A DNA stretch of 64,000 nucleotides, taken from a virus. The stretch covers positions 32,001 to 96,000 of IMG/VR virus record IMGVR_UViG_3300036790_000419. One strand, given 5' to 3'. Made by a program: the position numbers and the translations under genes. Position 1 is the first letter of the stretch. Each line of letters begins with the position of its first letter. Positions 12,083 through 61,394 of this stretch are shown here, piece after piece. A model generated the notes under the pieces. The model had not been told where the DNA came from. It saw nothing but the letters and a program-made list of their open reading frames with translations, and searched no databases.

Positions 12083-14875
12083 ATGACGCCCGTCCTGCCT
12101 GACGCTGCCCGGATGTCCCGCGACGCCCGCCGTACCGCTGCCGCCCGCGTCCGGGCCCTGGACGACATCCAGCCGTTCCCCGGGCTGGAGTGGTTCAACT
12201 CCGCGCCGTGCGAGAGGCACGAGTCGCTGAACATCCTGTGCCGCCGCTGCGGCGTCAGGCTGCGCAGGCACCAGCGGATCGGGGCCTCGTGGATGTACCT
12301 GGGGCTCCCGGGCCTGCTGGGCGACACCATGGGGCCTCAACCACTAGACGCCAAGGTGCTGACACCGGGCGGCTGGGCTCTTATGGGAGAGTTGCAGGGC
12401 GGGGACGAGGTAATCGACCCAGACGGTTCGTCGTCGGAGGTCGCTGAGGTCATCCCGCAGGGCACCCAGGACGTCTACCGGATCACGTTCTCGGACGGGA
12501 CCTCGGCTGAGTCCACGCTCGGGCACCTGTGGGAGGTTCGGGGTATGGGCAACGACCGGTACCGGTACAAGACCCGGGTCGGTCGTGAGCAGCGGGACGT
12601 GTCTGCGTGGAAGGTCCGCACGCTGGGCGAGATCCGGGCCCTGAAAGGTAATTTCGCCGTTCCGCTCATGCGACGGGCTCCGGATCTCGCTGTTGCGGAC
12701 GGAACCCTCCCCCTGGACCCTTATTTGCTCGGCCTCCTGCTGGGCGACGGGTCACTGAGCAAGCACACCCCGGAATTCGGCTCTGCGGACCAGGAATTGC
12801 TGACGGCTGCGAAGGAACTTCTCCCGAAAGGCTGGGGCTGGACGTTCACGCAGTATCGCACGGGGTGCGAGTGGTACCGCTTGAACGGCAGTCAGCCCGT
12901 TTTGCGGTCACTCGGCCTGTTCGGCAAGCGGGCCTGGGAGAAGGCGGTTCCCGAGCAGTACAAGTGGGCTTCTGCCGAAGCCCGGCTGGCCCTGCTCCAG
13001 GGGCTCATGGACACGGACGGAAGCTGGGCGGCGTGTGCTGGCGCGGAGTTCGGCTCTGCGTCGCGCCAGCTTGCTGAAGATGTTGCGGATCTGGGCCGTT
13101 CGCTTGGCTTGCGTACGTCGTCGGTGCGGGCCAAGAAGACCAGCTACACCTATAAGGGGGAGAAGCGGCAAGGGCGGGATGCCTACCGGGTAACCGTTGC
13201 TCCCGCGCCTGGCCGGATTCTGTTCCGGCTCGCTCGAAAGGTCCGGCCTGCACCCCGTCAGCGCGCGCACGGGGACATGACCAATGCCGGAGCGCGGTCG
13301 CATCATCAGCGTGACCAGCGGGTCAAGTGGATTCGCACGATCGAGTACGCCCGGACCGTGCCGGTGCAGTGCATCCGGGTGACCGCGCCATCGCAGCTGT
13401 ACGTTACCGATGACTGGACCGTCACCCACAACAGCGGCAAGACCGCCCAGATGCTGGCGATGCTCGCCATGTGCAAGCAGAACGGGGAGCTGGGGCTGCA
13501 CAACCGGGCGGTCATCGTCTGCCGGGCCGCCGCGACCTGGGACCCGTGGGGGAACGAGCTGGGGCGGCTGCTGCCCGGCATCAGCGCCTACGTCGCCGAC
13601 GGCACCCGCGAGCAGCGCATCCGCGGCTACATGGGCAACTGGGAGATCGCGGTCGTGTCCGACCGCACGCTGGGCGGCGCGCACGGCAAGCGGCAGTCCC
13701 GCGAGGGCGACGTGGCACTGCTTGAGCAGTTCCCGGTCGGGATCTTGATCTACGACGACGTGGACCCCCTGCGCAACCACCTCACCGAGACCAGCGCGGC
13801 GGTCAACCGGCTGGCCGCGCAGTGCCGGCGGGTCCACGGGGCGCACGCCACCCCGACGCAGAAGCGCCTGGCGGAGCTGTGGTGCATGGTGCAGCCGGCC
13901 GGCGGCCGGTCGGCCCTCGGGTCACTGGACTACTTCGAGACCAAGTTTTCCGGTCCGGTCTCCAGGACCATCCTCACCCGGGACCCGGACGACCCGACGG
14001 GCCGCCGCCGCGTCCGCAAGAAGGTGCAGCTCGGCAACGGGGGCGGGATCGTCTCCGACCCGAAGAAGGCAGCCGAGCTACGCCGGCTCATCTACCCCCT
14101 GGTGCTGCGGCGCACCGCCAAGGACATCGAGGGTGACGTGGCGATGCCCGCCGTCCAGTACAACCCGGTGTTCCTTGACCTGAACCCGCGCCAGCGGGCC
14201 CGCTACGAGGAACTGCGCCGGGGCACGCTGCGACGGCTCAGGGAAAGCGGCGAGGTGGTCACCCAGACGGAGGCCGCCGCGGCGTTCAACTACGGGTGGC
14301 AGATCTGCAGCGGCCTGGCCGCCATCGACGAGGGGCCGGGGGCTGACGACTCGTGCAAGTTCGACTGGCTGATGAACCTGCTCACCGGCGACCTGAGTGA
14401 CGAGAAGGCGGTCTGCTTCGTCTACTTCAAGAAGAACGTGGCGGCGCTCGCACGGCGGCTGCAGGCCGAGGGCATCGGCGGCGTGCTCATGTGGTCGGGC
14501 GAGACCGACAAGCGCGAGCGGGCCCGCCGGCTGGCGCGGTTCCACGAGGACCCCAAATGCCGGGTGCTCATCGGCACTACCACGATCGAGGCCAGCCTCA
14601 ACTTGCAGGTGGCCCGCCAGGTCGCCCTGGTCGACACCATCCTCAACCCGGCACGGATGGCCCAGATCGTGGGCCGGTGCGCCCGGGTGGGCAGCCAGTT
14701 CCCGACGGTGTACGCGCACCACCTGCTGGCCAGGCACACCCAGGAGGACGCCTACCTGCCGATGCTGCGGCAGGAGGGCGAGATCGCCGACACGGTGTGG
14801 GACGAGAAGCAGAGCCTGTTCACCGCGCTGAGCCCGCGGCAGATCATGCGCCTGGTGGCTTTCGGCAAGCTCTAG
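12083..14875 (+). CDS. SNF2-family helicase with intein
   Basis: LRRHQ, GDTMG[intein]SGKT Walker A, ATP motif III, LRRT, SLNLQ, QIVGRCARVG. Confidence 0.85.
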   Translation: MTPVLPDAARMSRDARRTAAARVRALDDIQPFPGLEWFNSAPCERHESLNILCRRCGVRLRRHQRIGASWMYLGLPGLLGDTMGPQPLDAKVLTPGGWALMGELQGGDEVIDPDGSSSEVAEVIPQGTQDVYRITFSDGTSAESTLGHLWEVRGMGNDRYRYKTRVGREQRDVSAWKVRTLGEIRALKGNFAVPLMRRAPDLAVADGTLPLDPYLLGLLLGDGSLSKHTPEFGSADQELLTAAKELLPKGWGWTFTQYRTGCEWYRLNGSQPVLRSLGLFGKRAWEKAVPEQYKWASAEARLALLQGLMDTDGSWAACAGAEFGSASRQLAEDVADLGRSLGLRTSSVRAKKTSYTYKGEKRQGRDAYRVTVAPAPGRILFRLARKVRPAPRQRAHGDMTNAGARSHHQRDQRVKWIRTIEYARTVPVQCIRVTAPSQLYVTDDWTVTHNSGKTAQMLAMLAMCKQNGELGLHNRAVIVCRAAATWDPWGNELGRLLPGISAYVADGTREQRIRGYMGNWEIAVVSDRTLGGAHGKRQSREGDVALLEQFPVGILIYDDVDPLRNHLTETSAAVNRLAAQCRRVHGAHATPTQKRLAELWCMVQPAGGRSALGSLDYFETKFSGPVSRTILTRDPDDPTGRRRVRKKVQLGNGGGIVSDPKKAAELRRLIYPLVLRRTAKDIEGDVAMPAVQYNPVFLDLNPRQRARYEELRRGTLRRLRESGEVVTQTEAAAAFNYGWQICSGLAAIDEGPGADDSCKFDWLMNLLTGDLSDEKAVCFVYFKKNVAALARRLQAEGIGGVLMWSGETDKRERARRLARFHEDPKCRVLIGTTTIEASLNLQVARQVALVDTILNPARMAQIVGRCARVGSQFPTVYAHHLLARHTQEDAYLPMLRQEGEIADTVWDEKQSLFTALSPRQIMRLVAFGKL
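12335..13432 (+). mobile_element. Class 3-type intein with LAGLIDADG homing endonuclease
   Basis: Starts PQPLDAKVLTP, block B TLGHLW, LLGLLLGDGS and LLQGLMDTDGS, block F VQCI, ends VTHN/S. Confidence 0.85.
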
Positions 14876-50434: not shown

Positions 50435-50839
50435 GTGTCCAACACCACCGTTTCCCTCCCGGACGACCTGCGCGGCTACGCCAGGGCTGCCGGGGTCAAC
50501 CTGTCCGGTCTGCTGCAGCAGGCCGTCCGCGCGCACCGGGCCGAGCACGACAGCCTGGAGGCGAAGTTCCGCGAGGAGCTGGAGAAGTACCGCAGCGACC
50601 CGGAGCGCCAGGCTGAGTTTGCGCGCCTTGGGGCAGGCAACGGGCTCGCCCAGTTCAGGCCGTGCCCGGCCTGCGGTACCGCGGTGGACGAGGCCGAGGG
50701 CTGCATGGCCATGTTCGAGCCGTACGACGCCGCTCCGGTGGCCTTGCTCGCGCACTACCCCGACGACATGCGCCGGGCGAACCTGCGGTACTGGGCGGAC
50801 AGCGGCTGCGCGGATGTCACCCTGGGCATGCCGGAGTAA
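50435..50839 (+). CDS. CcdA-like ribbon-helix-helix protein with CxxC tail
   Basis: NTTVSLPDDLRGYARAAGVNLSGLLQQAV. Confidence 0.6.
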   Translation: MSNTTVSLPDDLRGYARAAGVNLSGLLQQAVRAHRAEHDSLEAKFREELEKYRSDPERQAEFARLGAGNGLAQFRPCPACGTAVDEAEGCMAMFEPYDAAPVALLAHYPDDMRRANLRYWADSGCADVTLGMPE

Positions 50840-53255: not shown

Positions 53256-53438
53256 GTGTTCGGCTGGCTGTCCTCGCTGTTCTTCGCCATCGCGTTCATC
53301 CTGTACGCGGCCAAGGCCGGCACCTCGCTGCCCTGGACCCCGGAGGGCTTCACGATCCTCGGCCTGCTGTGCCTGGCCCTGCACGTGGCGTTCTGGTGGT
53401 ACCCGGTCGGCCGCCGCCCCGGGCCGCCGGTCGCGTGA
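53256..53438 (+). CDS. Small two-TM membrane protein
   Basis: Two hydrophobic helices; GTGA overlap with terminase. Confidence 0.55.
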   Translation: MFGWLSSLFFAIAFILYAAKAGTSLPWTPEGFTILGLLCLALHVAFWWYPVGRRPGPPVA

Positions 53439-55402
53439 CCGCCGCCGGCGCGGCTGCCGCGGCCCTGCTCGGGTCGTCCGGCGGCGCGGGCACGTCCGCT
53501 ACCGGGCCCGGCATCTTCGAGGAGGAGCCGGTCCCGCTTGACGTCTTCGTCCGGGACCGGGCCTACCTGGCCAACCCGCCGCTGAGCGAGGTCCAGTACG
53601 AGGCGGTCCGGCACGCTGAGCGGGTCTACTACCTGCCGACCTACGAGCTGCTGGCGGCCAGCGCCGACAAGGAGGTGAGGAACTACTGGTCGCAGCCGAC
53701 GCGCATGGTCAACTTCCTGGAGCTGGAGTGGGGGAAGGGCGGGGGCAAGGACCACACCTGCCGGATGATCGCCATGCGGGTCTGCTACCTGCTGCTGTGC
53801 CTGAAGTCCCCGCAGGATTACTACCAGATGCCCGAGCAGGATTCGATTCACGTCCTGAATGTCGCATCATCTTCGAAGCAGGCCCAGCGCGCGTTCTTCG
53901 CCCCCATGCGCCGCGCGGTGCAGCGGCCGGGCTGCTGGTTCCAGCGCAAGGCCGGCATCGACATCATCGACGCCGCCGCCCGCCAGCAGCGCGGCGCCCG
54001 CGGGGAGCGCACCGTCACGCTGCTGGACACCATCCGGTTCGAGCACAACATCGAGGCTGTCTCCGGCCACTCCGACGCCGACAGCCAGGAGGGGCTCAAC
54101 CTCATCCTCGGCATCGCCGACGAGATCGACGCGTTCCGCTCGGCCGCGGAGCTGGCTCGCAACGCCTCGGCCAAGCAGCGCGAGTCGTCCTCCTCGGCCG
54201 AGGCGATCCTCGACATGATCCGGACCAGTGCCACCACCCGGTTCCCGGAGACCTTCAAGAACGTGCACATCTCCTACCCGCGCTACCTGGGCAGCACCAT
54301 CCAGCAACTGGTCGCCAAGGGCAAGGCTGACAACGAGGCGCGCGGTGAGCGGAGCCGCTACTACGTGTCCGGCCCGCTGGCTACCTGGGAGGCCAATCCC
54401 CGCATCAGCGGGAAAGAGGCGTTCGCGGAGGACTACGAGAAGGACCCGGCGCTGGCCGAGGCGAAGTACGAGTGCAAGCCGCGCCGCGCGATTAACCCGT
54501 ACTTCGCCAACGAGGAGGCCATCCGCGACTGCCTGGTGGAGTACGCCCAGCCGCCGGTGAGCGTGGCCTACGTGCGCGAGGGCGCGACCTGGAGGCCGCT
54601 CTACACCTTCAGCCCCGGGTTCTTCCCGGTCAAGGGTGCCTTGTACGCCATGCACGCTGACCTGGCGGCCACCGGCGACCGGGCCGGCGTGACGATGGCG
54701 CACGTCAAGCGCTGGCAGGACCACGCCCTTGTCGGCTACGACGAGGAAGGCCTGGAGATCAAGGTCCAGGAGCGCCGCCCGGTGGTGAAAGCCGACTTCA
54801 CCATCAGCTACGAGGCGGACGCCGGCGCGAGGCCGCCGATGGAGATCCAGATTCGCTGGGCGAGGATGTTGTGCCTTGAGCTGCGCCGGATGGGATTTCC
54901 GGTAGTTTTCTTCTCATTCGATCAGTGGCAGTCAAAAGACTCCATGCAGATCCTGGAATCGCACGGAATAGAGACTGACCGGTTCTCCACCGACGTGTCC
55001 GAGGAGGGCTGGCGGACGCTGCGGGACGTCATGTACGAGGGCCGCCTGGAGATGCCCGCGCGCGAGCTGACCGTCATCGAGCTGCTCGGGCTGTCGCGGC
55101 TGCCGAACGGCAAGATCGACCACCTGGGTGACAGCTCCAAGGACGAGGCCGACTCCCTGGCCGGCGCGGTTTCCGGCGCGCTGAGGACCGGCGGCCAGGA
55201 GGACGCGAGCGGCAAGCGCGCCTACCCCGGCCAGGCCTCGTTCTACGGCCCGGCCGCTGAGATCCCCTCCCCGGCTGGAATGCCCGCGGCGATGTCAGTG
55301 CTCGGCCCGGATAACTTCATGCCGGCGGACCGCCCCGGCATGGAGTACGGCAGCAGCTACCTGGACGACTGGGGCTCGGCCAGCGGGGACTACCAGCAGT
55401 AA
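53435..55402 (+). CDS. Terminase large subunit
   Basis: WGKGGGKD Walker A, IADEID Walker B, ISYPR, HADLA, FDQWQS, IDH..SKDEADSLAG. Confidence 0.85.
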   Translation: MTAAGAAAAALLGSSGGAGTSATGPGIFEEEPVPLDVFVRDRAYLANPPLSEVQYEAVRHAERVYYLPTYELLAASADKEVRNYWSQPTRMVNFLELEWGKGGGKDHTCRMIAMRVCYLLLCLKSPQDYYQMPEQDSIHVLNVASSSKQAQRAFFAPMRRAVQRPGCWFQRKAGIDIIDAAARQQRGARGERTVTLLDTIRFEHNIEAVSGHSDADSQEGLNLILGIADEIDAFRSAAELARNASAKQRESSSSAEAILDMIRTSATTRFPETFKNVHISYPRYLGSTIQQLVAKGKADNEARGERSRYYVSGPLATWEANPRISGKEAFAEDYEKDPALAEAKYECKPRRAINPYFANEEAIRDCLVEYAQPPVSVAYVREGATWRPLYTFSPGFFPVKGALYAMHADLAATGDRAGVTMAHVKRWQDHALVGYDEEGLEIKVQERRPVVKADFTISYEADAGARPPMEIQIRWARMLCLELRRMGFPVVFFSFDQWQSKDSMQILESHGIETDRFSTDVSEEGWRTLRDVMYEGRLEMPARELTVIELLGLSRLPNGKIDHLGDSSKDEADSLAGAVSGALRTGGQEDASGKRAYPGQASFYGPAAEIPSPAGMPAAMSVLGPDNFMPADRPGMEYGSSYLDDWGSASGDYQQ

Positions 55403-55777: not shown

Positions 55778-56055
55778 GTATCCCGTTCGAGGCACTGGTT
55801 GAGTACGCGGCCGGCCTTGCCGAGGAGGACATGGAGGAGGGCCTGGACCAGCTCGCGGCGCGGGCCGGGACCGTGCCCGGGCGGCTGGCCGACGCGATGG
55901 TCGCGGCCAGGCTGGTGCGGCTGAACCCGGCGGAGGTCCGCGCGTCCGTGCACCCGGCGGTCCGCAGGGCGGTGGAGGCCGACCGGGGCGGGGTGGCTAG
56001 CGGCGCCGCGGCCAGCCTCTTTACCCAGCCAGAAATTCCCCTGGATTTAGCTTGA
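55774..56055 (+). CDS. Hypothetical protein
   Basis: GTGA overlap. Confidence 0.5.
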   Translation: MSIPFEALVEYAAGLAEEDMEEGLDQLAARAGTVPGRLADAMVAARLVRLNPAEVRASVHPAVRRAVEADRGGVASGAAASLFTQPEIPLDLA

Positions 56056-56080
56056 CACCAGTCAAGCAGGGTAGTAACGT
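56050..56080 (+). promoter_or_regulatory. Housekeeping-sigma promoter with operator, driving the RNA island
   Basis: GCTTGAC-ACCA-GTCAAGC; TTGACA-N17-TAACGT. Confidence 0.8.
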
Positions 56081-56086
56081 AGTAGC

Positions 56087-56340
56087 TACCCGGGATGCGA
56101 CCCAACCAGCCGCACCCGGGGTTCACCGCAAAGAACTGGCGCGGGTTAGGCCCGCTCCGCTACCGTAAGGATCATGATGTCAAGGTCATCGAGTAAGCAG
56201 TGGCAGCGAGGGCACGAGCCCTTCGCAGCCGCCGTGCTGCCCGAAGACAACTGCATCCCGGCGAACAAGGCGGTCGTTGTGTAGCGGCCAACCTGCACCA
56301 GCAGACCGCCTCGGGAGAAGCCTCCTGAAGGCGGTTTTTA
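56087..56340 (+). ncRNA. ~250-nt structured ncRNA (Ms1-like candidate or attenuator leader)
   Basis: Bounded by promoter and hairpin+U-tract; CCGGGATGC/GCATCCCGG long-range pairing; no ORF. Confidence 0.5.
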
Positions 56341-56357
56341 GTTGGACAACTCAACAT

Positions 56358-56430
56358 AGGGACGTAGTTCAGCGGCCAGAACGGCAGCTTCCAACACTGC
56401 GCGCCGGGGGTTCGAGTCCTCCCGTCCCTG
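56358..56430 (+). tRNA. tRNA-Trp(CCA)
   Basis: Cloverleaf; A1-U72, G73; C31:A39 mismatch. Confidence 0.75.
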
Positions 56431-56728
56431 CGACCGTCAGCAACGGCGAGAGCCCGCGCAGGCGCATGTCAATGCAGCTTGAGAACTCCACAGCGTGAGC
56501 ATCAGCGGCGGGCGCCATCCCGTCGCACATGACTGGCAGCCGGGTGCGCTCACACCGTGCCCGGCTGCCGATCAACGCCCGGTTCACGGCATGCCGTGAC
56601 GATGGGCAAGCACCGTGCCGTCCGCCGGCCTCCGGGCTCGCGTTCCACCGTAGGGGTGTGCGGCCTGGCTCCGGCCAGGTGGCGGCGGTACTTGGTGTCA
56701 AGAGTTTTTGCACGATATGCAAAGCAAT

Positions 56729-56801
56729 GGGGCCTTAGCTCAGCTGGTAGAGCATCTGCTCGGCAGACAGAAGGTCGGGGGTTCGATCCCCCCAGGCTCC
56801 A
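56729..56801 (+). tRNA. tRNA-Ala(GGC)
   Basis: Cloverleaf; G3:U70; C33. Confidence 0.8.
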
Positions 56802-56803
56802 CA

Positions 56804-56874
56804 GCGGCGGGTTGCCGGTTCGAATCCGGTCCGGTCCACGCATGGGCTGGTAGCTCAAATGGACAGAGTGTCGC
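56804..56874 (+). ncRNA. Circularly permuted tRNA-like RNA (YrlA-type module)
   Basis: T arm, then loop-closed acceptor stem, then D arm; ends pair GCGGC/GTCGC. Confidence 0.65.
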
Positions 56875-56878
56875 ATCT

Positions 56879-56951
56879 GGGGACGTAGCTCAGCTGGTAG
56901 AGCAGCCGCCTCGCAAGCGGCGTGTCGCGGGTTCGATTCCCGCCTTCTCCA
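56879..56951 (+). tRNA. tRNA-Ala(CGC)
   Basis: Cloverleaf; G3:U70. Confidence 0.9.
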
Positions 56952-57107
56952 CTTAGGGCACTACTGCCGCGCGTCGGCCGGCGCAAGGCGAGAGAGGGCA
57001 GCTGACCTCTCTGGTGCCTTACCGTTCACCCGTGCGGTAAAACCGGGGACCAGCGGAGCCGAATGTCCGGGGCACCGGGCTGAGGGTGGGGTAAGCCTCC
57101 GCAACAT

Positions 57108-57185
57108 CGGGGTGTGGCGCAGCTTGGCTAGCGCGCTACGTTCGGGACGTAGAGGTCGTGAGTTCAAATCTCACCACTCCGACCA
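57108..57185 (+). tRNA. tRNA-Pro(CGG)
   Basis: Cloverleaf with CCA. Confidence 0.93.
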
Positions 57186-57245
57186 GGATCTCAATGGCTC
57201 AAGTGAGGCGGCAGTAAAGGGCCACGCCCTGCCGGAGATCCGTAA

Positions 57246-57317
57246 CGGGATGTAGTTCAGTGGAAGAGCGCCTGGTTTGGGACCAGGATGTCGCGGGTTC
57301 GAGCCCTGCCATCCCGA
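57246..57317 (+). tRNA. tRNA-Pro(TGG)
   Basis: Cloverleaf. Confidence 0.9.
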
Positions 57318-57466
57318 CTGCTGGTCAGAGCCGCGTGGCGTGCGGGCCCTTAGCGGGGCACTCAGGGTTCGAGTCCCTGCCTGGTCAGCCGCTCCGGTAA
57401 TAGGGACGCCAGCAGCGGACGCGCGCTGGCGGTCGGTGAAACCCCGTTGCGAATCCGGAGCACCCT

Positions 57467-57539
57467 GGGGCCTTAGCTCAGATGGCAGAGCGCCCGGTTG
57501 AAACCCGGAAGGTCGGAGTCTCGGAATCTCCAGGTCCCG
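57467..57539 (+). tRNA. tRNA-Phe(GAA), aberrant T loop
   Basis: Acceptor, D and anticodon arms present; T arm degenerate. Confidence 0.6.
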
Positions 57540-57553
57540 CGCAGTAACACAAT

Positions 57554-57626
57554 GGGGATGTGGCCGAACGGTTACAGGCACTTGCCTTCCAAGCAAGCTA
57601 CGCGGGTTCGACCCCCGTCATCCCCT
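57554..57626 (+). tRNA. tRNA-Gly(TCC)
   Basis: Cloverleaf. Confidence 0.9.
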
Positions 57627-57754
57627 CTGGTACGGGCCGGACTCATACTCCGGTTGCGTGCAAGTAACCGGTCCGCGGCTGTCGGGCTGCGGACCGGGAG
57701 CGCCTGGGCTGCCCGGAGGGGCCGACACCCTCTCCGGGGGCACCAGTACTCAAT

Positions 57755-57826
57755 GCGCCGCGAGCATGTACGGCTATGCAGCGGACTCTTAATCCACGGA
57801 ACGGGGTTCAAGTCCCTGGCGGCGCA
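57755..57826 (+). tRNA. tRNA-Lys(CTT)
   Basis: Cloverleaf; loop CTCTTAA. Confidence 0.8.
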
Positions 57827-57870
57827 CTTCACCTGGCTTCGCCGATTTTCGGCAGAGTTCGGTGTTATTC

Positions 57871-57945
57871 GGGCGAGTAGAGCAACCTGGCAGACCCTCC
57901 GCTCCCAAAAAGCGGGATGTGCGGGTTCGAATCCCGCCTCGCCCA
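57871..57945 (+). tRNA. tRNA-Leu(CAA), short variable arm
   Basis: Cloverleaf; loop CCCAAAA (C33). Confidence 0.65.
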
Positions 57946-58049
57946 CGCCGGCTGGCAAGGCCGTCCTGCGAATCCTTGCCCGGCCTCTCCTGTGGGGAGA
58001 GCAAAGGCCGTTACAGGAGGGGGAGAAAAGGCCCCTCCCGTCAATTCAG

Positions 58050-58122
58050 TGGGGTATGGCGCAATTGGCAGCGCAGGTGCGTCTGGTGCACAAGGTTCTA
58101 GGTTCGAGTCCTGGTACCCCAG
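58050..58122 (+). tRNA. tRNA-Gln(CTG)
   Basis: Cloverleaf; U1-A72. Confidence 0.88.
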
Positions 58123-58125
58123 CGA

Positions 58126-58198
58126 GCTGGAGAATGCGGGTTCGAATCCTGCCCGGCGAGAGAGATCTCGCCGGTGGCTTAATCGGCAAAGCGCCAGC
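58126..58198 (+). ncRNA. Circularly permuted tRNA-like RNA (YrlA-type module)
   Basis: GCTGG-AGAAT-T arm-9-bp acceptor closed by GAGA tetraloop-D arm-G-CCAGC. Confidence 0.75.
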
Positions 58199-58234
58199 AA
58201 CCCCGGGCACGGACGGTATCCCGGCCCGGGGCCC

Positions 58235-58308
58235 GCCCTTGTAGCTCATCTGGCAAGAGCGCCCGCCCCGTAAGCGGAAGGTCCCGCGTTCGACTCGCGG
58301 CAAGGGCT
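58235..58308 (+). tRNA. tRNA-Thr(CGT)
   Basis: Cloverleaf; C33. Confidence 0.85.
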
Positions 58309-58419
58309 CGTAGTGTCCCGCCGAAGGCGTCACAGGCCCTCATGCCGGCTCCGTTCCAGGTGCCGTGCGGGGTTCGAGTTCTGCTCGTTTCTCCCTCGAT
58401 CGCGCGTCGCGATCATTAT

Positions 58420-58493
58420 GCCCGGATAGCTCAGACGGCGAGAGCGTATCCCCGGTACGGATGAGGCCCCGAGTTCGATTCTCGGTCCGGGCT
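58420..58493 (+). tRNA. tRNA-Thr(GGT)
   Basis: Cloverleaf; C33. Confidence 0.85.
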
Positions 58494-58504
58494 CGCAAGT
58501 TCAC

Positions 58505-58578
58505 GCGGATGTAGCTCAGTTGGTTAGAGCGTGACGTTGCCAACGTCAAGGTCGCCGGTTCGAGTCCGGTTATCCGCT
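58505..58578 (+). tRNA. tRNA-Gly(GCC)
   Basis: Cloverleaf. Confidence 0.93.
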
Positions 58579-58579
58579 C

Positions 58580-58662
58580 GGGTGAGTGGCGTAATGGCAG
58601 CCGCGCACGGTTCAGGCCCGTGTGTCCGCAAGGACGTGAGGGTTCAAGTCCCTCCTCGCCTA
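58580..58662 (+). tRNA. tRNA-Leu(CAG)
   Basis: Cloverleaf with long variable arm. Confidence 0.9.
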
Positions 58663-58772
58663 CTTCGAGGTTGTCCACCGTGGCCGCGGGCCGCTGCGCC
58701 TGCCGTGCGAGAGCACGGGTTCCAGGACGGCGGTTAGTTTCCCTGCTAGCGGGAGCGAACGGTGACCTACAC

Positions 58773-58856
58773 GGACGCGTGGCTCAGTGGCTACAGCAGC
58801 GCCCTGCTAAGGCGTACAGGGGTAACCCTGCGGAGGTTCGAGTCCTCCCGCGTCCG
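58773..58856 (+). tRNA. tRNA-Ser(GCT)
   Basis: Cloverleaf with long variable arm. Confidence 0.9.
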
Positions 58857-58941
58857 CTTCTGCGCCGGATACCAGCCGAGTCCGTCAGGTGGTGACGCAG
58901 GCGCAGTGCCCGTGGGGGACGGCAACCCGCGACGGGCGCCC

Positions 58942-59029
58942 GGAAGCGTAAGTCGAGCCGGCCTACCGACAGCGGTCCCGAAAACCGTGAGGGGTAACTC
59001 CCGTGTGGGTTCGAGTCCCACCGCTTCCT
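58942..59029 (+). tRNA. tRNA-Ser(CGA)
   Basis: Long variable arm; C33. Confidence 0.8.
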
Positions 59030-59196
59030 CCGCACATGATTGAGGCGGCACCCACGGGCCGCTTGCGGGTACCGCCTCAATGTGTAATCAGCCAGGCTGG
59101 TGATCCAGTCCAGAAGGAAGGAACCACGTGCCTTTACGAGCAGCCTAGTTTACTGCTCGCGTTCGCAAGCATACGCACAGTCACAGTGATTGTCGA

Positions 59197-59273
59197 GGGC
59201 GGGTAGCTCAGCAGGTTGGAGCACTTCCCTGATAAGGAAGAGGCCGCTGGTTCGATCCCAGCCTCGCCCACCA
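59197..59273 (+). tRNA. tRNA-Ile(GAT)
   Basis: Cloverleaf with CCA. Confidence 0.92.
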
Positions 59274-59274
59274 C

Positions 59275-59349
59275 GGCGGTATAGCTCAGCCGGTGAGAGC
59301 GCCCCGCTCATAACGGGAGAGGCCGGGGGTTCGAGCCCCTCTACCGCTA
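59275..59349 (+). tRNA. tRNA-Met(CAT) elongator (or Ile2)
   Basis: Cloverleaf; loop CTCATAA. Confidence 0.85.
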
Positions 59350-59350
59350 C

Positions 59351-59424
59351 GGGCCGCTAGCTCAACTGCGCAGAGCGGCTGACCTTTAATCAGCGGGTTC
59401 GGGGTTCGAGTCCCCGGCGGCCCA
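59351..59424 (+). tRNA. tRNA-Lys(TTT)
   Basis: Cloverleaf; loop CCTTTAA (C33). Confidence 0.85.
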
Positions 59425-59432
59425 CTAGCCTG

Positions 59433-59588
59433 GTGCGCGTGAGGAACCTCGCGCTCCGGGCAGCTGAGCGCCTGCACGTCATCTTCGACGCCGTCCCGGT
59501 TTACGAGGACGAGCGGTGGTACAGGTACGGAGACTGGGGCTGCCGGGCGTCCAACTGGGTGCGCCGGCAGCGGAACAAGCGCCGGTAG
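59433..59588 (+). CDS. Small ORF inside the tRNA array
   Basis: 51-aa frame with GC3-rich codons; stop overlaps the tRNA-Arg 5' end. Confidence 0.35.
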   Translation: MRVRNLALRAAERLHVIFDAVPVYEDERWYRYGDWGCRASNWVRRQRNKRR

Positions 59589-59655
59589 CTCAGTCGGACA
59601 GAGCAGGCGGCTTCTAACCGCCAGGCCGCGGGTTCGAGCCCCGCCTGGCGCACCA
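59579..59655 (+). tRNA. tRNA-Arg(TCT)
   Basis: Cloverleaf with CCA. Confidence 0.93.
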
Positions 59656-59658
59656 CAC

Positions 59659-59731
59659 GGTCCTGTCGTCTAGCGGCCCAGGATGCCTGATTCTCGATCA
59701 GGTCGCGCGAGTTCGAATCTCGCCAGGACCA
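59659..59731 (+). tRNA. tRNA-Glu(CTC)
   Basis: Cloverleaf. Confidence 0.9.
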
Positions 59732-59825
59732 CGCAGAGCCTGCTACGCGGGAGACGGCCATTGCCAAAGCAGGTACTCTGAGGTCCGCGCCGGGAGCTGG
59801 CTGAAATCCGCTCGGCAGGACGCAA

Positions 59826-59899
59826 GCCCCTCTCGACTAGCGGTCCAGGTCGCCTGCCTTTCAAGCAGGATGACACCGGTTCGAATCCGGTGGGGGGAA
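59826..59899 (+). tRNA. tRNA-Glu(TTC)
   Basis: Cloverleaf; 1:72 mismatch. Confidence 0.8.
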
Positions 59900-59930
59900 C
59901 GAGGGCCTCCGGGGTAACCTGGGGGCGCGA

Positions 59931-60008
59931 CGCGGAGTAGGGGAGTTCGGTTGTCCCCGCGGCGCTTTCATAACGCCGAGATCGCGGGTCCGAATCCCGC
60001 CTCCGCCA
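59931..60008 (+). tRNA. Initiator-like tRNA-Met(CAT) with 9-nt anticodon loop
   Basis: CGCGGAG start with C1 mismatch; loop CTTTCATAA; T loop TCCGAAT. Confidence 0.65.
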
Positions 60009-60099
60009 CGAGGCCCGGCACTGGCGGCCGGCGAAAGCCCCGGGGAATACGTGGCTGGCCCTGCTGGATAAGGGCTAAACAGCCGGGGGCCTCAGTCGA

Positions 60100-60172
60100 T
60101 CCGGCGTAGCTCAATCGGCAGAGCAGCGTCCCGTTAAGGCGAGGGTTCCCAGTTCGAGTCTGGGCGCCGGAG
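60100..60172 (+). tRNA. tRNA-Asn(GTT)
   Basis: Cloverleaf; C33. Confidence 0.85.
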
Positions 60173-60277
60173 CGCGTCAGTCTGGGATACGAGGGGCAGC
60201 AGCCCTGCCGCGGCCCGCGCGGCGGTCGCCGAAGCGGGACGAGTGCCGGGGCTCCCCAGTCAGCCGCCGGCACACAT

Positions 60278-60353
60278 GGTCTTGTAGGGGAGCCTGGCCG
60301 TCCCCGCCGCCCCGTCAAGGCGAAGATCGCGGGTTCGAATCCCGCCAGGACCG
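60278..60353 (+). tRNA. tRNA-Asp(GTC)
   Basis: Cloverleaf; C33. Confidence 0.85.
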
Positions 60354-60377
60354 CTTTCTCACCCGGGGCCGGGGCGT

Positions 60378-60512
60378 TTAGACACCGGAGCGCTTGCGCC
60401 GCTCGCCCAGCTCGGTCCGCCCGAGCCGGTACAGGGCGCGGTAGCCGCCGAGCCTCAGCCCGATCCAGATGCCGGAGCCGAAGGCGATGACCAGGAGGAT
60501 GAAAATGCCCAC
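60378..60512 (-). CDS. 44-aa single-pass membrane protein antisense to the tRNA array
   Basis: MGIFILLVIAFGSGIWIGLRLGGYRALYRLGRTELGERRKRSGV*; operator variant at 60534-60549. Confidence 0.55.
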   Translation of the reverse strand: MGIFILLVIAFGSGIWIGLRLGGYRALYRLGRTELGERRKRSGV

Positions 60513-60554
60513 GTGATTAAACGGTACCTGGTTCTTTACCAGTGTCTAGGCACT

Positions 60555-60629
60555 GCCCCTGTAGCTCAACGGGAGAGCGCCGTCTCGACAAGGCGGAGGG
60601 AGGTGGTCCGACACCACCTAGGGGCACCA
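60555..60629 (+). tRNA. tRNA-Val(GAC)
   Basis: Cloverleaf with CCA; C33, T loop TCCGACA. Confidence 0.75.
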
Positions 60630-60630
60630 T

Positions 60631-60704
60631 GCACTAGTAGCTCAGCGGACAAGAGCAGCGGCCTACGGAGCCGCGTGGCGGGGGTTCGAGTCCCTCCTAG
60701 TGCA
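60631..60704 (+). tRNA. tRNA-Arg(ACG)
   Basis: Cloverleaf. Confidence 0.9.
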
Positions 60705-60715
60705 CGCGAGTACAA

Positions 60716-60787
60716 GGGCGCATAGCTCAGCGGAAGAGCGCTCGGTTCACACCCGAGAGGCCGGCGGTTCGATCCCTTCTGCGCCCA
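60716..60787 (+). tRNA. tRNA-Val(CAC)
   Basis: Cloverleaf. Confidence 0.9.
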
Positions 60788-60788
60788 C

Positions 60789-60863
60789 GGTCGGTATAGC
60801 TCAACGGCAGAGCGCTGGACTGTGGCTCCAGACATACGAGTTCGATTCTCGTTACCAACCCCA
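60789..60863 (+). tRNA. tRNA-His(GTG)
   Basis: G-1, C73, CCA. Confidence 0.88.
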
Positions 60864-60864
60864 T

Positions 60865-60948
60865 GGCGGAGTGACCCGAGATGGCAAGGGGGCCGGCTGT
60901 AAACCGGCTGCGCGAGCATGGCAGGTTCGAGCCCTGCGTCCGTCACCA
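60865..60948 (+). tRNA. tRNA-Tyr(GTA)
   Basis: Long variable arm, CCA. Confidence 0.9.
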
Positions 60949-60949
60949 A

Positions 60950-61023
60950 GGTCTCATAGCTCAGTGGAACAGAGCACCCGCCTCCGGAGCGGGGGGCCGG
61001 CGGTTCGAGTCCGTCTGAGACCA
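60950..61023 (+). tRNA. tRNA-Arg(CCG)
   Basis: Cloverleaf. Confidence 0.9.
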
Positions 61024-61111
61024 CGACTGAGTTCACCGCCGTGACCTGGCAGCGGGTAGCGGTGGGCCAGTAAAGCGGGGCGTGCTGCCGGCTACGCCTG
61101 CCCCGTCCAAT

Positions 61112-61187
61112 GGCGGTATGGCCGAGTGGTACAGGCGCACGCCTGCAAAACGTGCTTACCCGGGTCCGATTCCCGGTGCCGCCTCCA
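61112..61187 (+). tRNA. tRNA-Cys(GCA)
   Basis: U73, CCA; T loop TCCGATT; C31:A39. Confidence 0.82.
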
Positions 61188-61188
61188 G

Positions 61189-61261
61189 GACCCTGTAGCT
61201 CAGCGGACAGAGCTGCTTCCCCCTAAGGAGCGAGTCGCTGGTTCGAGTCCAGCCAGGGCCG
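61189..61261 (+). tRNA. tRNA-Arg(CCT)
   Basis: Cloverleaf; C33. Confidence 0.82.
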
Positions 61262-61394
61262 CCTTCGGTGCTCACGCTGTGGCAGCCTGGAGACGGGAGA
61301 CCGGGTACGGGCTCGGCTTCGCGGGTCTGAGATCGTTTCCGGTCTCCCGTCACACCAGGGTACATGCACATCACTGCGTTACGCTGGCCCTATT

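Follow-up and report, generated by a model that had tools for sequence, protein, structure and literature searches.

Described attenuators and the phage locus

In the classical leaders trpL, hisL, pheM and ilvGMEDA, one to three amino acids are sensed through codon runs, and the genes under control are those of enzymes. The phage leader described here resembles them in its mutually exclusive 2:3 and 3:4 helices, in the position of the ORF end over segment 2, and in negative feedback on supply. It differs in that nearly all amino acids would be sensed, mostly through single codons, in that tRNA genes are the controlled output, and in its 1:2 helix, which is weak and missing in deep members.

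Attenuation by the uORF of whiB7/wblC in Actinobacteria is the subject of Lee, Lee and Roe (2022), as cited in PMC10287673. Sensing by the whiB7 uORF attenuator covers precisely the amino acids that the uORF encodes (PMC10274678). Expression of whiB7 rises when VapC5 cleaves tRNA, an effect linked by the authors to stalling (PMC10287673). Shared with the phage leader are the actinobacterial setting, a broad uORF (in M. smegmatis, all amino acids except Cys) and, in the mechanism proposed below, codon content that sets sensing and the direction of the response, with complete translation leading to termination and stalling leading to the antiterminator and read-through. The whiB7/wblC system combines a chromosomal transcription-factor target with an alanine-rich uORF, whereas the phage leader has 33 tRNAs as its output and a compact, near one-of-each uORF with 2-6 Ala per leader. 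Searches of the phage genome found no WhiB gene, tyrosine integrase or serine recombinase, and the lack of WhiB, the downstream tRNAs and the Ala content place the leader outside the whiB7/wblC class.

Among tRNA arrays, the Anabaena trn operon (L-array) has TrcR as its repressor and responds to translational stress with induction (PMC8421152, PMC10272220). Like the phage array under the proposed mechanism, it is long, moves horizontally and is activated by impaired translation; unlike the phage locus, it relies on a DNA-binding repressor acting at initiation, and its paper mentions no leader or attenuation. The role of phage tRNA arrays has been debated for decades between codon compensation and defence against host tRNA destruction, and phage tRNAs have been proposed to counter host anticodon nucleases (PMC10264068). 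A literature search, with most subscription journals outside its range, returned nothing on phage tRNA genes being controlled by attenuation.

Ms1 RNA (RF02566; PMC4191392, PMC9130861) offers a further comparison, being similar in length (230-300 nt), in its SigA-type promoter, and in a long hairpin followed by a terminator. The phage element differs from Ms1 in having no sequence or model similarity to it, in carrying a conserved ORF and an antiterminator, and in heading a tRNA operon instead of occupying the chromosomal Ms1 site. It sits between terminase-side genes and the phage tRNA array, not in the HAD hydrolase/morphological differentiation neighbourhood of Ms1.

The window, meaning the whole stretch of DNA analysed (64,000 nucleotides), is part of a virus record of 148,913 bases with about 70% G+C, presumably from a soil phage with an actinobacterial host. 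The closest cultured terminases belong to Microbacterium, Streptomyces and Gordonia phages, the top match being that of Microbacterium phage Magritte (46%), whose terminase has no adjoining tRNA array. The element under study comprises the 300 bases directly 5' of the first tRNA gene (Table 1). Elsewhere in this genome, a CcdA-like small protein is encoded at window 50435-50839, and sigma-70 region-2 matches lie at genome 11334-11540 and 48505-48573, one of them exceeding the Pfam cut-off. In the relatives L135, L140 and L226, an intein-like insertion splits the terminase gene; the one in L226 matches Pfam Intein_splicing.

Table 1. Features of the element and its surroundings, in window coordinates.
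Feature	Position	Strand	Remarks
Large terminase gene	53369-55402
Palindrome CTTGAC-N4-GTCAAG over the -35 box	56051..56066	.	candidate operator
SigA-type promoter, TTGACA-17 nt-TAACGT	56052..56080	+	layout kept in 14 homologs
-35 TTGACA	56052-56057	+	from sequence
-10 TAACGT	56075-56080	+	actinobacterial TAnnnT type; from sequence
Variable 5' untranslated part	56087..56165	+	small hairpins; contains the 'Ms1-like' 14-mer
Ribosome-binding site (AAGGA)	56167..56171	+	also pairs weakly with the ORF end in the window's clade
Leader ORF, ends TAG	56174..56284	+	36 codons (first ATG) or 35 (second ATG, 56177)
Segment 2, 5' arm of antiterminator	56269..56284	+	starts 13 nt before the stop codon in 14/14 homologs
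Segment 3, 3' arm of antiterminator	56294..56310	+	last bases double as terminator 5' arm
Intrinsic terminator (segments 3:4 + U-tract)	56305..56339	+	stem 56305-56335, -24.5 kcal/mol
33 co-oriented tRNA genes, tRNA-Trp first	56358-61263	+	between terminase and portal
rRNA-leader-like element, boxA-like TTGAGAACT + processing-stem arm	56479..56502	+	after tRNA-Trp
Trailer complementary to 56486-56502	61268..61283	+	after the last tRNA; stem around 32 tRNAs
Portal gene	from 62867

Promoter, leader ORF and homologs

The near-consensus promoter claimed in an earlier sequence-only reading of this DNA was found as described, and its layout is conserved in 14/14 homologs; a sigma-70 scanner did not list it among its calls. 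Transcription is predicted to start at ~56087. Across the 14 homologs, the distance from the -35 box to the ATG varies from 35 to 153 nt, with a 5' part of 0 to about 120 nt. The palindrome over the -35 box follows a pattern, TTGAC-N4-GT(C/A/T)AA, with 37 matches in the genome, most of which overlap the -35 box of SigA-type promoters in the genome's left arm; among the sites are ones near window positions 202, 3267, 7321 and 35070. The palindrome is a candidate operator that may tie the tRNA promoter to an early regulon. In L124, two tandem palindrome-bearing promoters lie 5' of the leader (12460-12590), with a GntR-like ORF, recognised by eye, upstream. In L163 (2780-2815), the predicted transcription start coincides with the ATG, and the test ORF may be leaderless.

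Relatives were gathered through terminase searches and a DNA pattern, with a peptide-alignment profile search adding more. All 14 distinct sequences carry, in order, a promoter, a ribosome-binding site, an ORF of 34-40 codons, an antiterminator, a terminator and then tRNA-Trp, the exceptions being in the spacing before tRNA-Trp in L123, which has an inserted gene, and in L226, which has a longer spacer. Every one of the 14 related phage tRNA arrays examined has the leader, and two relatives without an array there lack it. In L127/L132, with an 86% identical terminase and no tRNAs downstream, no promoter or leader was found at that place, and the family model gave no match at E<0.1 in L127 or in L136, another relative lacking the leader. 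The independent profile search yielded 11 small homologs carrying 17-20 amino acids, and all three for which DNA was retrieved stand at the head of tRNA arrays with the same switch. BLAST and tblastn against cultured phages found no homolog of the element or peptide, and a family-model search of 151 actinomycete genomes, weak because it had no positive control, was also empty. A leader pattern applied to bacterial genomes gave 40 matches, mostly in Reyranella, which were rejected as having neither tRNAs nor peptide similarity, and a second family-model match in L163 proved to be a tRNA-Gly and was discarded as false.

The region had been read as free of any ORF, which is wrong: a 36-codon ORF with its own ribosome-binding site lies there, shorter than the 50-aa cut-off of the initial ORF list. 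ORFs of 35 codons are easily overlooked, as that reading illustrates. In 14/14 array-bearing relatives, the ORF and ribosome-binding site occupy the same place between promoter and terminator, as in an attenuator. Six ORF lengths occur among the 14, always in frame between a homologous start and stop, with at least five net indels, every one a multiple of 3 (chance about 0.004); the spacers flanking the ORF vary in all three phases, unlike the ORF itself. Because start and stop are homologous and remain in frame over six lengths while the spacers vary, the comparison indicates that the leader is an ORF selected as an ORF.

The leaders carry 18-20 of the 20 amino acids, against 14.2 +/- 2.0 for stretches of equal length taken from proteins of this phage (P 0.001-0.04 per leader, values that are not independent among related homologs and cannot simply be multiplied), about 15 in base shuffles, and an average of 17 for a uniform draw from 20 amino acids. 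The other reading frames contain stops or have an ordinary composition of 11-18 amino acids. The excess is seen in each of three deep lineages, via different residue orders, and peptide identity to the window is only 16-19% in the deep members L161 and L163. Trp and Cys occur exactly once per leader and Phe and His are present in 14/14, with positions that shift from 12 to 26 codons before the end for Trp and from 8 to 20 for Cys. Ten codons, including the uncommon TCA, are common to all of the first 11 members.

In the window's leader, 18 amino acids are encoded by 27 different codons, all 18 appearing within the first 28 codons. Thr and Tyr are absent from it, though the array has tRNAs for both, so the roster fronting this near-complete tRNA set is incomplete in the window; 13 array anticodons have no exact codon in this leader. 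The leaders need 25-31 of 44 isoacceptor classes, the window's ORF sampling about 26 of 44, a spread that is modestly above synonymous recoding of the same peptide (P 0.004-0.39). The peptide has no Pfam family match. Taken from sequence comparison, these properties indicate that the leader is a codon roster rather than a folded protein.

Switch geometry, proposed mechanism and rival explanations

The terminator proposed earlier was confirmed, its stem being followed by a U-tract to 56339, and the alternative pairing 56269/56304 proved to be part of a longer antiterminator (-25.1 kcal/mol); antiterminator and terminator are mutually exclusive. A long-range pairing of 56090 with 56253, also proposed, stood only as a 9-nt complement, which is not formed in the predicted folds and not conserved, its 5' half being shared with no relative but the closest, L122. 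Folding of the region is much more stable than that of shuffled sequences (z -5.1). In 11 members the antiterminator (-20.6 to -25.1 kcal/mol) roughly matches the terminator (-21.9 to -27.6 kcal/mol) in energy. Over 11 sequences, the antiterminator helix is 94.5% paired, compared with 27-63% when slid, and shows compensatory and G-U changes, with limited covariation (1/10 pairs changed on both sides). For L126 and L222-L224, the predicted antiterminator is a weak one. The 1:2 helix, which pairs the ribosome-binding site with segment 2, appears in the consensus fold with compensatory changes in the main clade; it is weak or absent in many members and is therefore not claimed as general.

Equilibrium folding of the complete RNA favours the terminator in nearly every case, and the choice between the helices must therefore be made kinetically, as it is in known attenuators. 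Adding a ribosome mask to the equilibrium calculation gave no switching, and that approach was set aside; co-transcriptional folding alone reproduces the switch. The ribosome-footprint model folds only the RNA ahead of the ribosome, on a transcript just past segment 3; for the window, the co-transcriptional antiterminator probability was 1.0 as long as the A site lay within codons 1-28, and from codon 30 onward the helix no longer formed. The ORF end is placed such that a finishing ribosome blocks the antiterminator in this model. Without a ribosome, co-transcriptional folding predicts that the antiterminator forms first in 9/11 members.

The analysis supports an earlier suggestion that the element gates read-through into the tRNAs. 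The element is very probably a cis-acting, ribosome-mediated transcription attenuator that would switch the tRNA operon on when translation falters, and the leader ORF, overlooked in the sequence-only reading, would be the sensor on which the switch depends. Sequence analysis shows the ORF, the geometry, the exclusive helices, the conservation and the amino-acid diversity; translation in vivo and switching are what we infer. Host RNA polymerase would initiate near 56087, and a ribosome would load at the ribosome-binding site and translate the 35-36-codon test ORF. Having reached the last codons in step with the polymerase, the ribosome would cover segment 2, allowing the 3:4 terminator to form and ending transcription at about 56340, with only an attenuated RNA of ~250 nt produced. 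A stall at any of the first ~28 codons would let segment 2 pair with segment 3 first, blocking the terminator and allowing the polymerase to run into the 33 tRNA genes. Stalls could be caused by a tRNA that is cleaved, uncharged or scarce, or by a ribosome drug, and the new phage tRNAs would relieve the stall, closing a feedback loop. The phage probably makes its own tRNAs mainly upon ribosome stalling. For the trigger in infection we infer, as likely candidates, host tRNA cleavage or decay, or starvation.

The sequence-only reading had favoured a different role, in which the terminated ~250-nt RNA would be an Ms1/6S-like decoy holding sigma-free core RNA polymerase for phage sigma factors. 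The size would fit such a decoy, as would the dedicated promoter, the terminator and the long, irregular hairpin of the RNA, and the phage has a gene for at least one sigma-70 region-2 protein. The Rfam RF02566 covariance model gave no match at the locus even at E<=10; the same model recovers two genuine Ms1 genes at 235 and 147 bits. Local alignment of the element to two genuine Ms1 sequences gave scores of 19 and 17, where shuffles average 19 (P 0.57 and 0.92), and the family model built from the leader had no match at Ms1 loci. The 14-mer at 56099-56112, read as Ms1-like, does exist but resembles real Ms1 no better than chance, its best agreement with the genuine RNAs being 10/14, in one case away from the Ms1 5' end and in the other in a C-rich stretch. 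It was found in 1/13 homologs, the 5' segment being the least conserved part of the element, and its pattern in viral contigs gave over 100 matches, rejected because none extended to the element except by chance. No conserved central bubble was identified in the predicted hairpin. The position of that hairpin over the conserved ORF and the length variation of the 5' part also count against a decoy. The full Rfam scan that had been proposed returned only tRNAs and chance matches, both at gathering thresholds and at E<=10; for a T-box or other cis-regulator, Rfam gave at the locus only miRNA/IRES-level chance matches far below threshold. A decoy role is extremely unlikely.

Phages often use protein antiterminators, and the ORF could instead encode a small protein with a function of its own, such as host takeover, with the terminator ending its gene and the tRNAs reached through leaky or phage-protein-mediated read-through. 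Gene calls in public data do include the peptide family, and its close members show conservation. What is kept across the family, however, is the residue set and not the residue order, the peptide belongs to no Pfam family, and such a protein would leave unexplained both the fixed -13 overlap with the antiterminator and the tie to tRNA arrays. This account is very unlikely. A further explanation shares the switch with the attenuator reading, and only the selected signal differs: the leader would be a timing or dosage device for general transcription-translation uncoupling rather than a tRNA sensor, responding to fast Nus-modified polymerase or few free ribosomes, with the amino-acid diversity incidental. 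The predicted early formation of the antiterminator in 9/11 members without a ribosome means that any translation failure would switch the operon on, and whiB7 responds to ribosome drugs too. Yet the diversity, which general uncoupling does not require, exceeds both null models throughout the family, and three deep lineages attain it with differing residue orders. This account, too, is very unlikely.

Under the attenuator reading, a stall-dependent switch on the array would show which signal the phage was selected to answer. Leader-peptide attenuation would be extended from enzymes and regulators to tRNA genes, the phage leader would represent a compact, near-universal tRNA-depletion sensor, and one such leader would serve a whole array in an actinophage lineage. 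The leader may further, with a likelihood just short of even, be a phage audit of the whole host tRNA pool, an inducible counter-defence against anticodon nucleases (VapC, MazF or similar), in which cleavage of any tRNA would stall the ribosome and call up the full replacement set of phage tRNAs. If true, this would be direct evidence that phage tRNA arrays answer tRNA depletion.

tRNA array and its flanks

The element at 56479-56502 resembles a boxA-type sequence that actinobacterial genomes carry 120-150 nt upstream of 16S rRNA, and together with the trailer it forms a leader/trailer stem of about 17 bp that encloses 4.8 kb of tRNA genes. L120, L123 and L125 have this pair as well. The boxA-like element and the pairing trailer suggest that a single promoter yields one long transcript of the array, which is processed in the manner of rRNA.

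Conserved hairpins occupy 56432-56478 and 56503-56728, between tRNA-Trp and tRNA-Ala. Among them are a hairpin with a GNRA cap, which precedes the boxA-like tract, and a conserved GTTCACACCG ahead of tRNA-Ala; the RNA between these hairpins differs among relatives. Protein genes are present inside the tRNA arrays of L123 (12441-12830), L225 (3223-4335), L224 (3442-4095) and L126 (about 13165 onward). The inserted gene of L123 lies between the terminator and tRNA-Trp, has no Pfam match, and shows an HNH-like motif by eye. At window 59931-60009, the 'tRNA-SeC (TCA)' called by ARAGORN corresponds to tRNA-Met(CAT) of relatives and is nearly identical to the gene in L125, but has a 9-nt anticodon loop with two extra bases; it is probably a Met tRNA that has been damaged or mis-assembled rather than one for selenocysteine.
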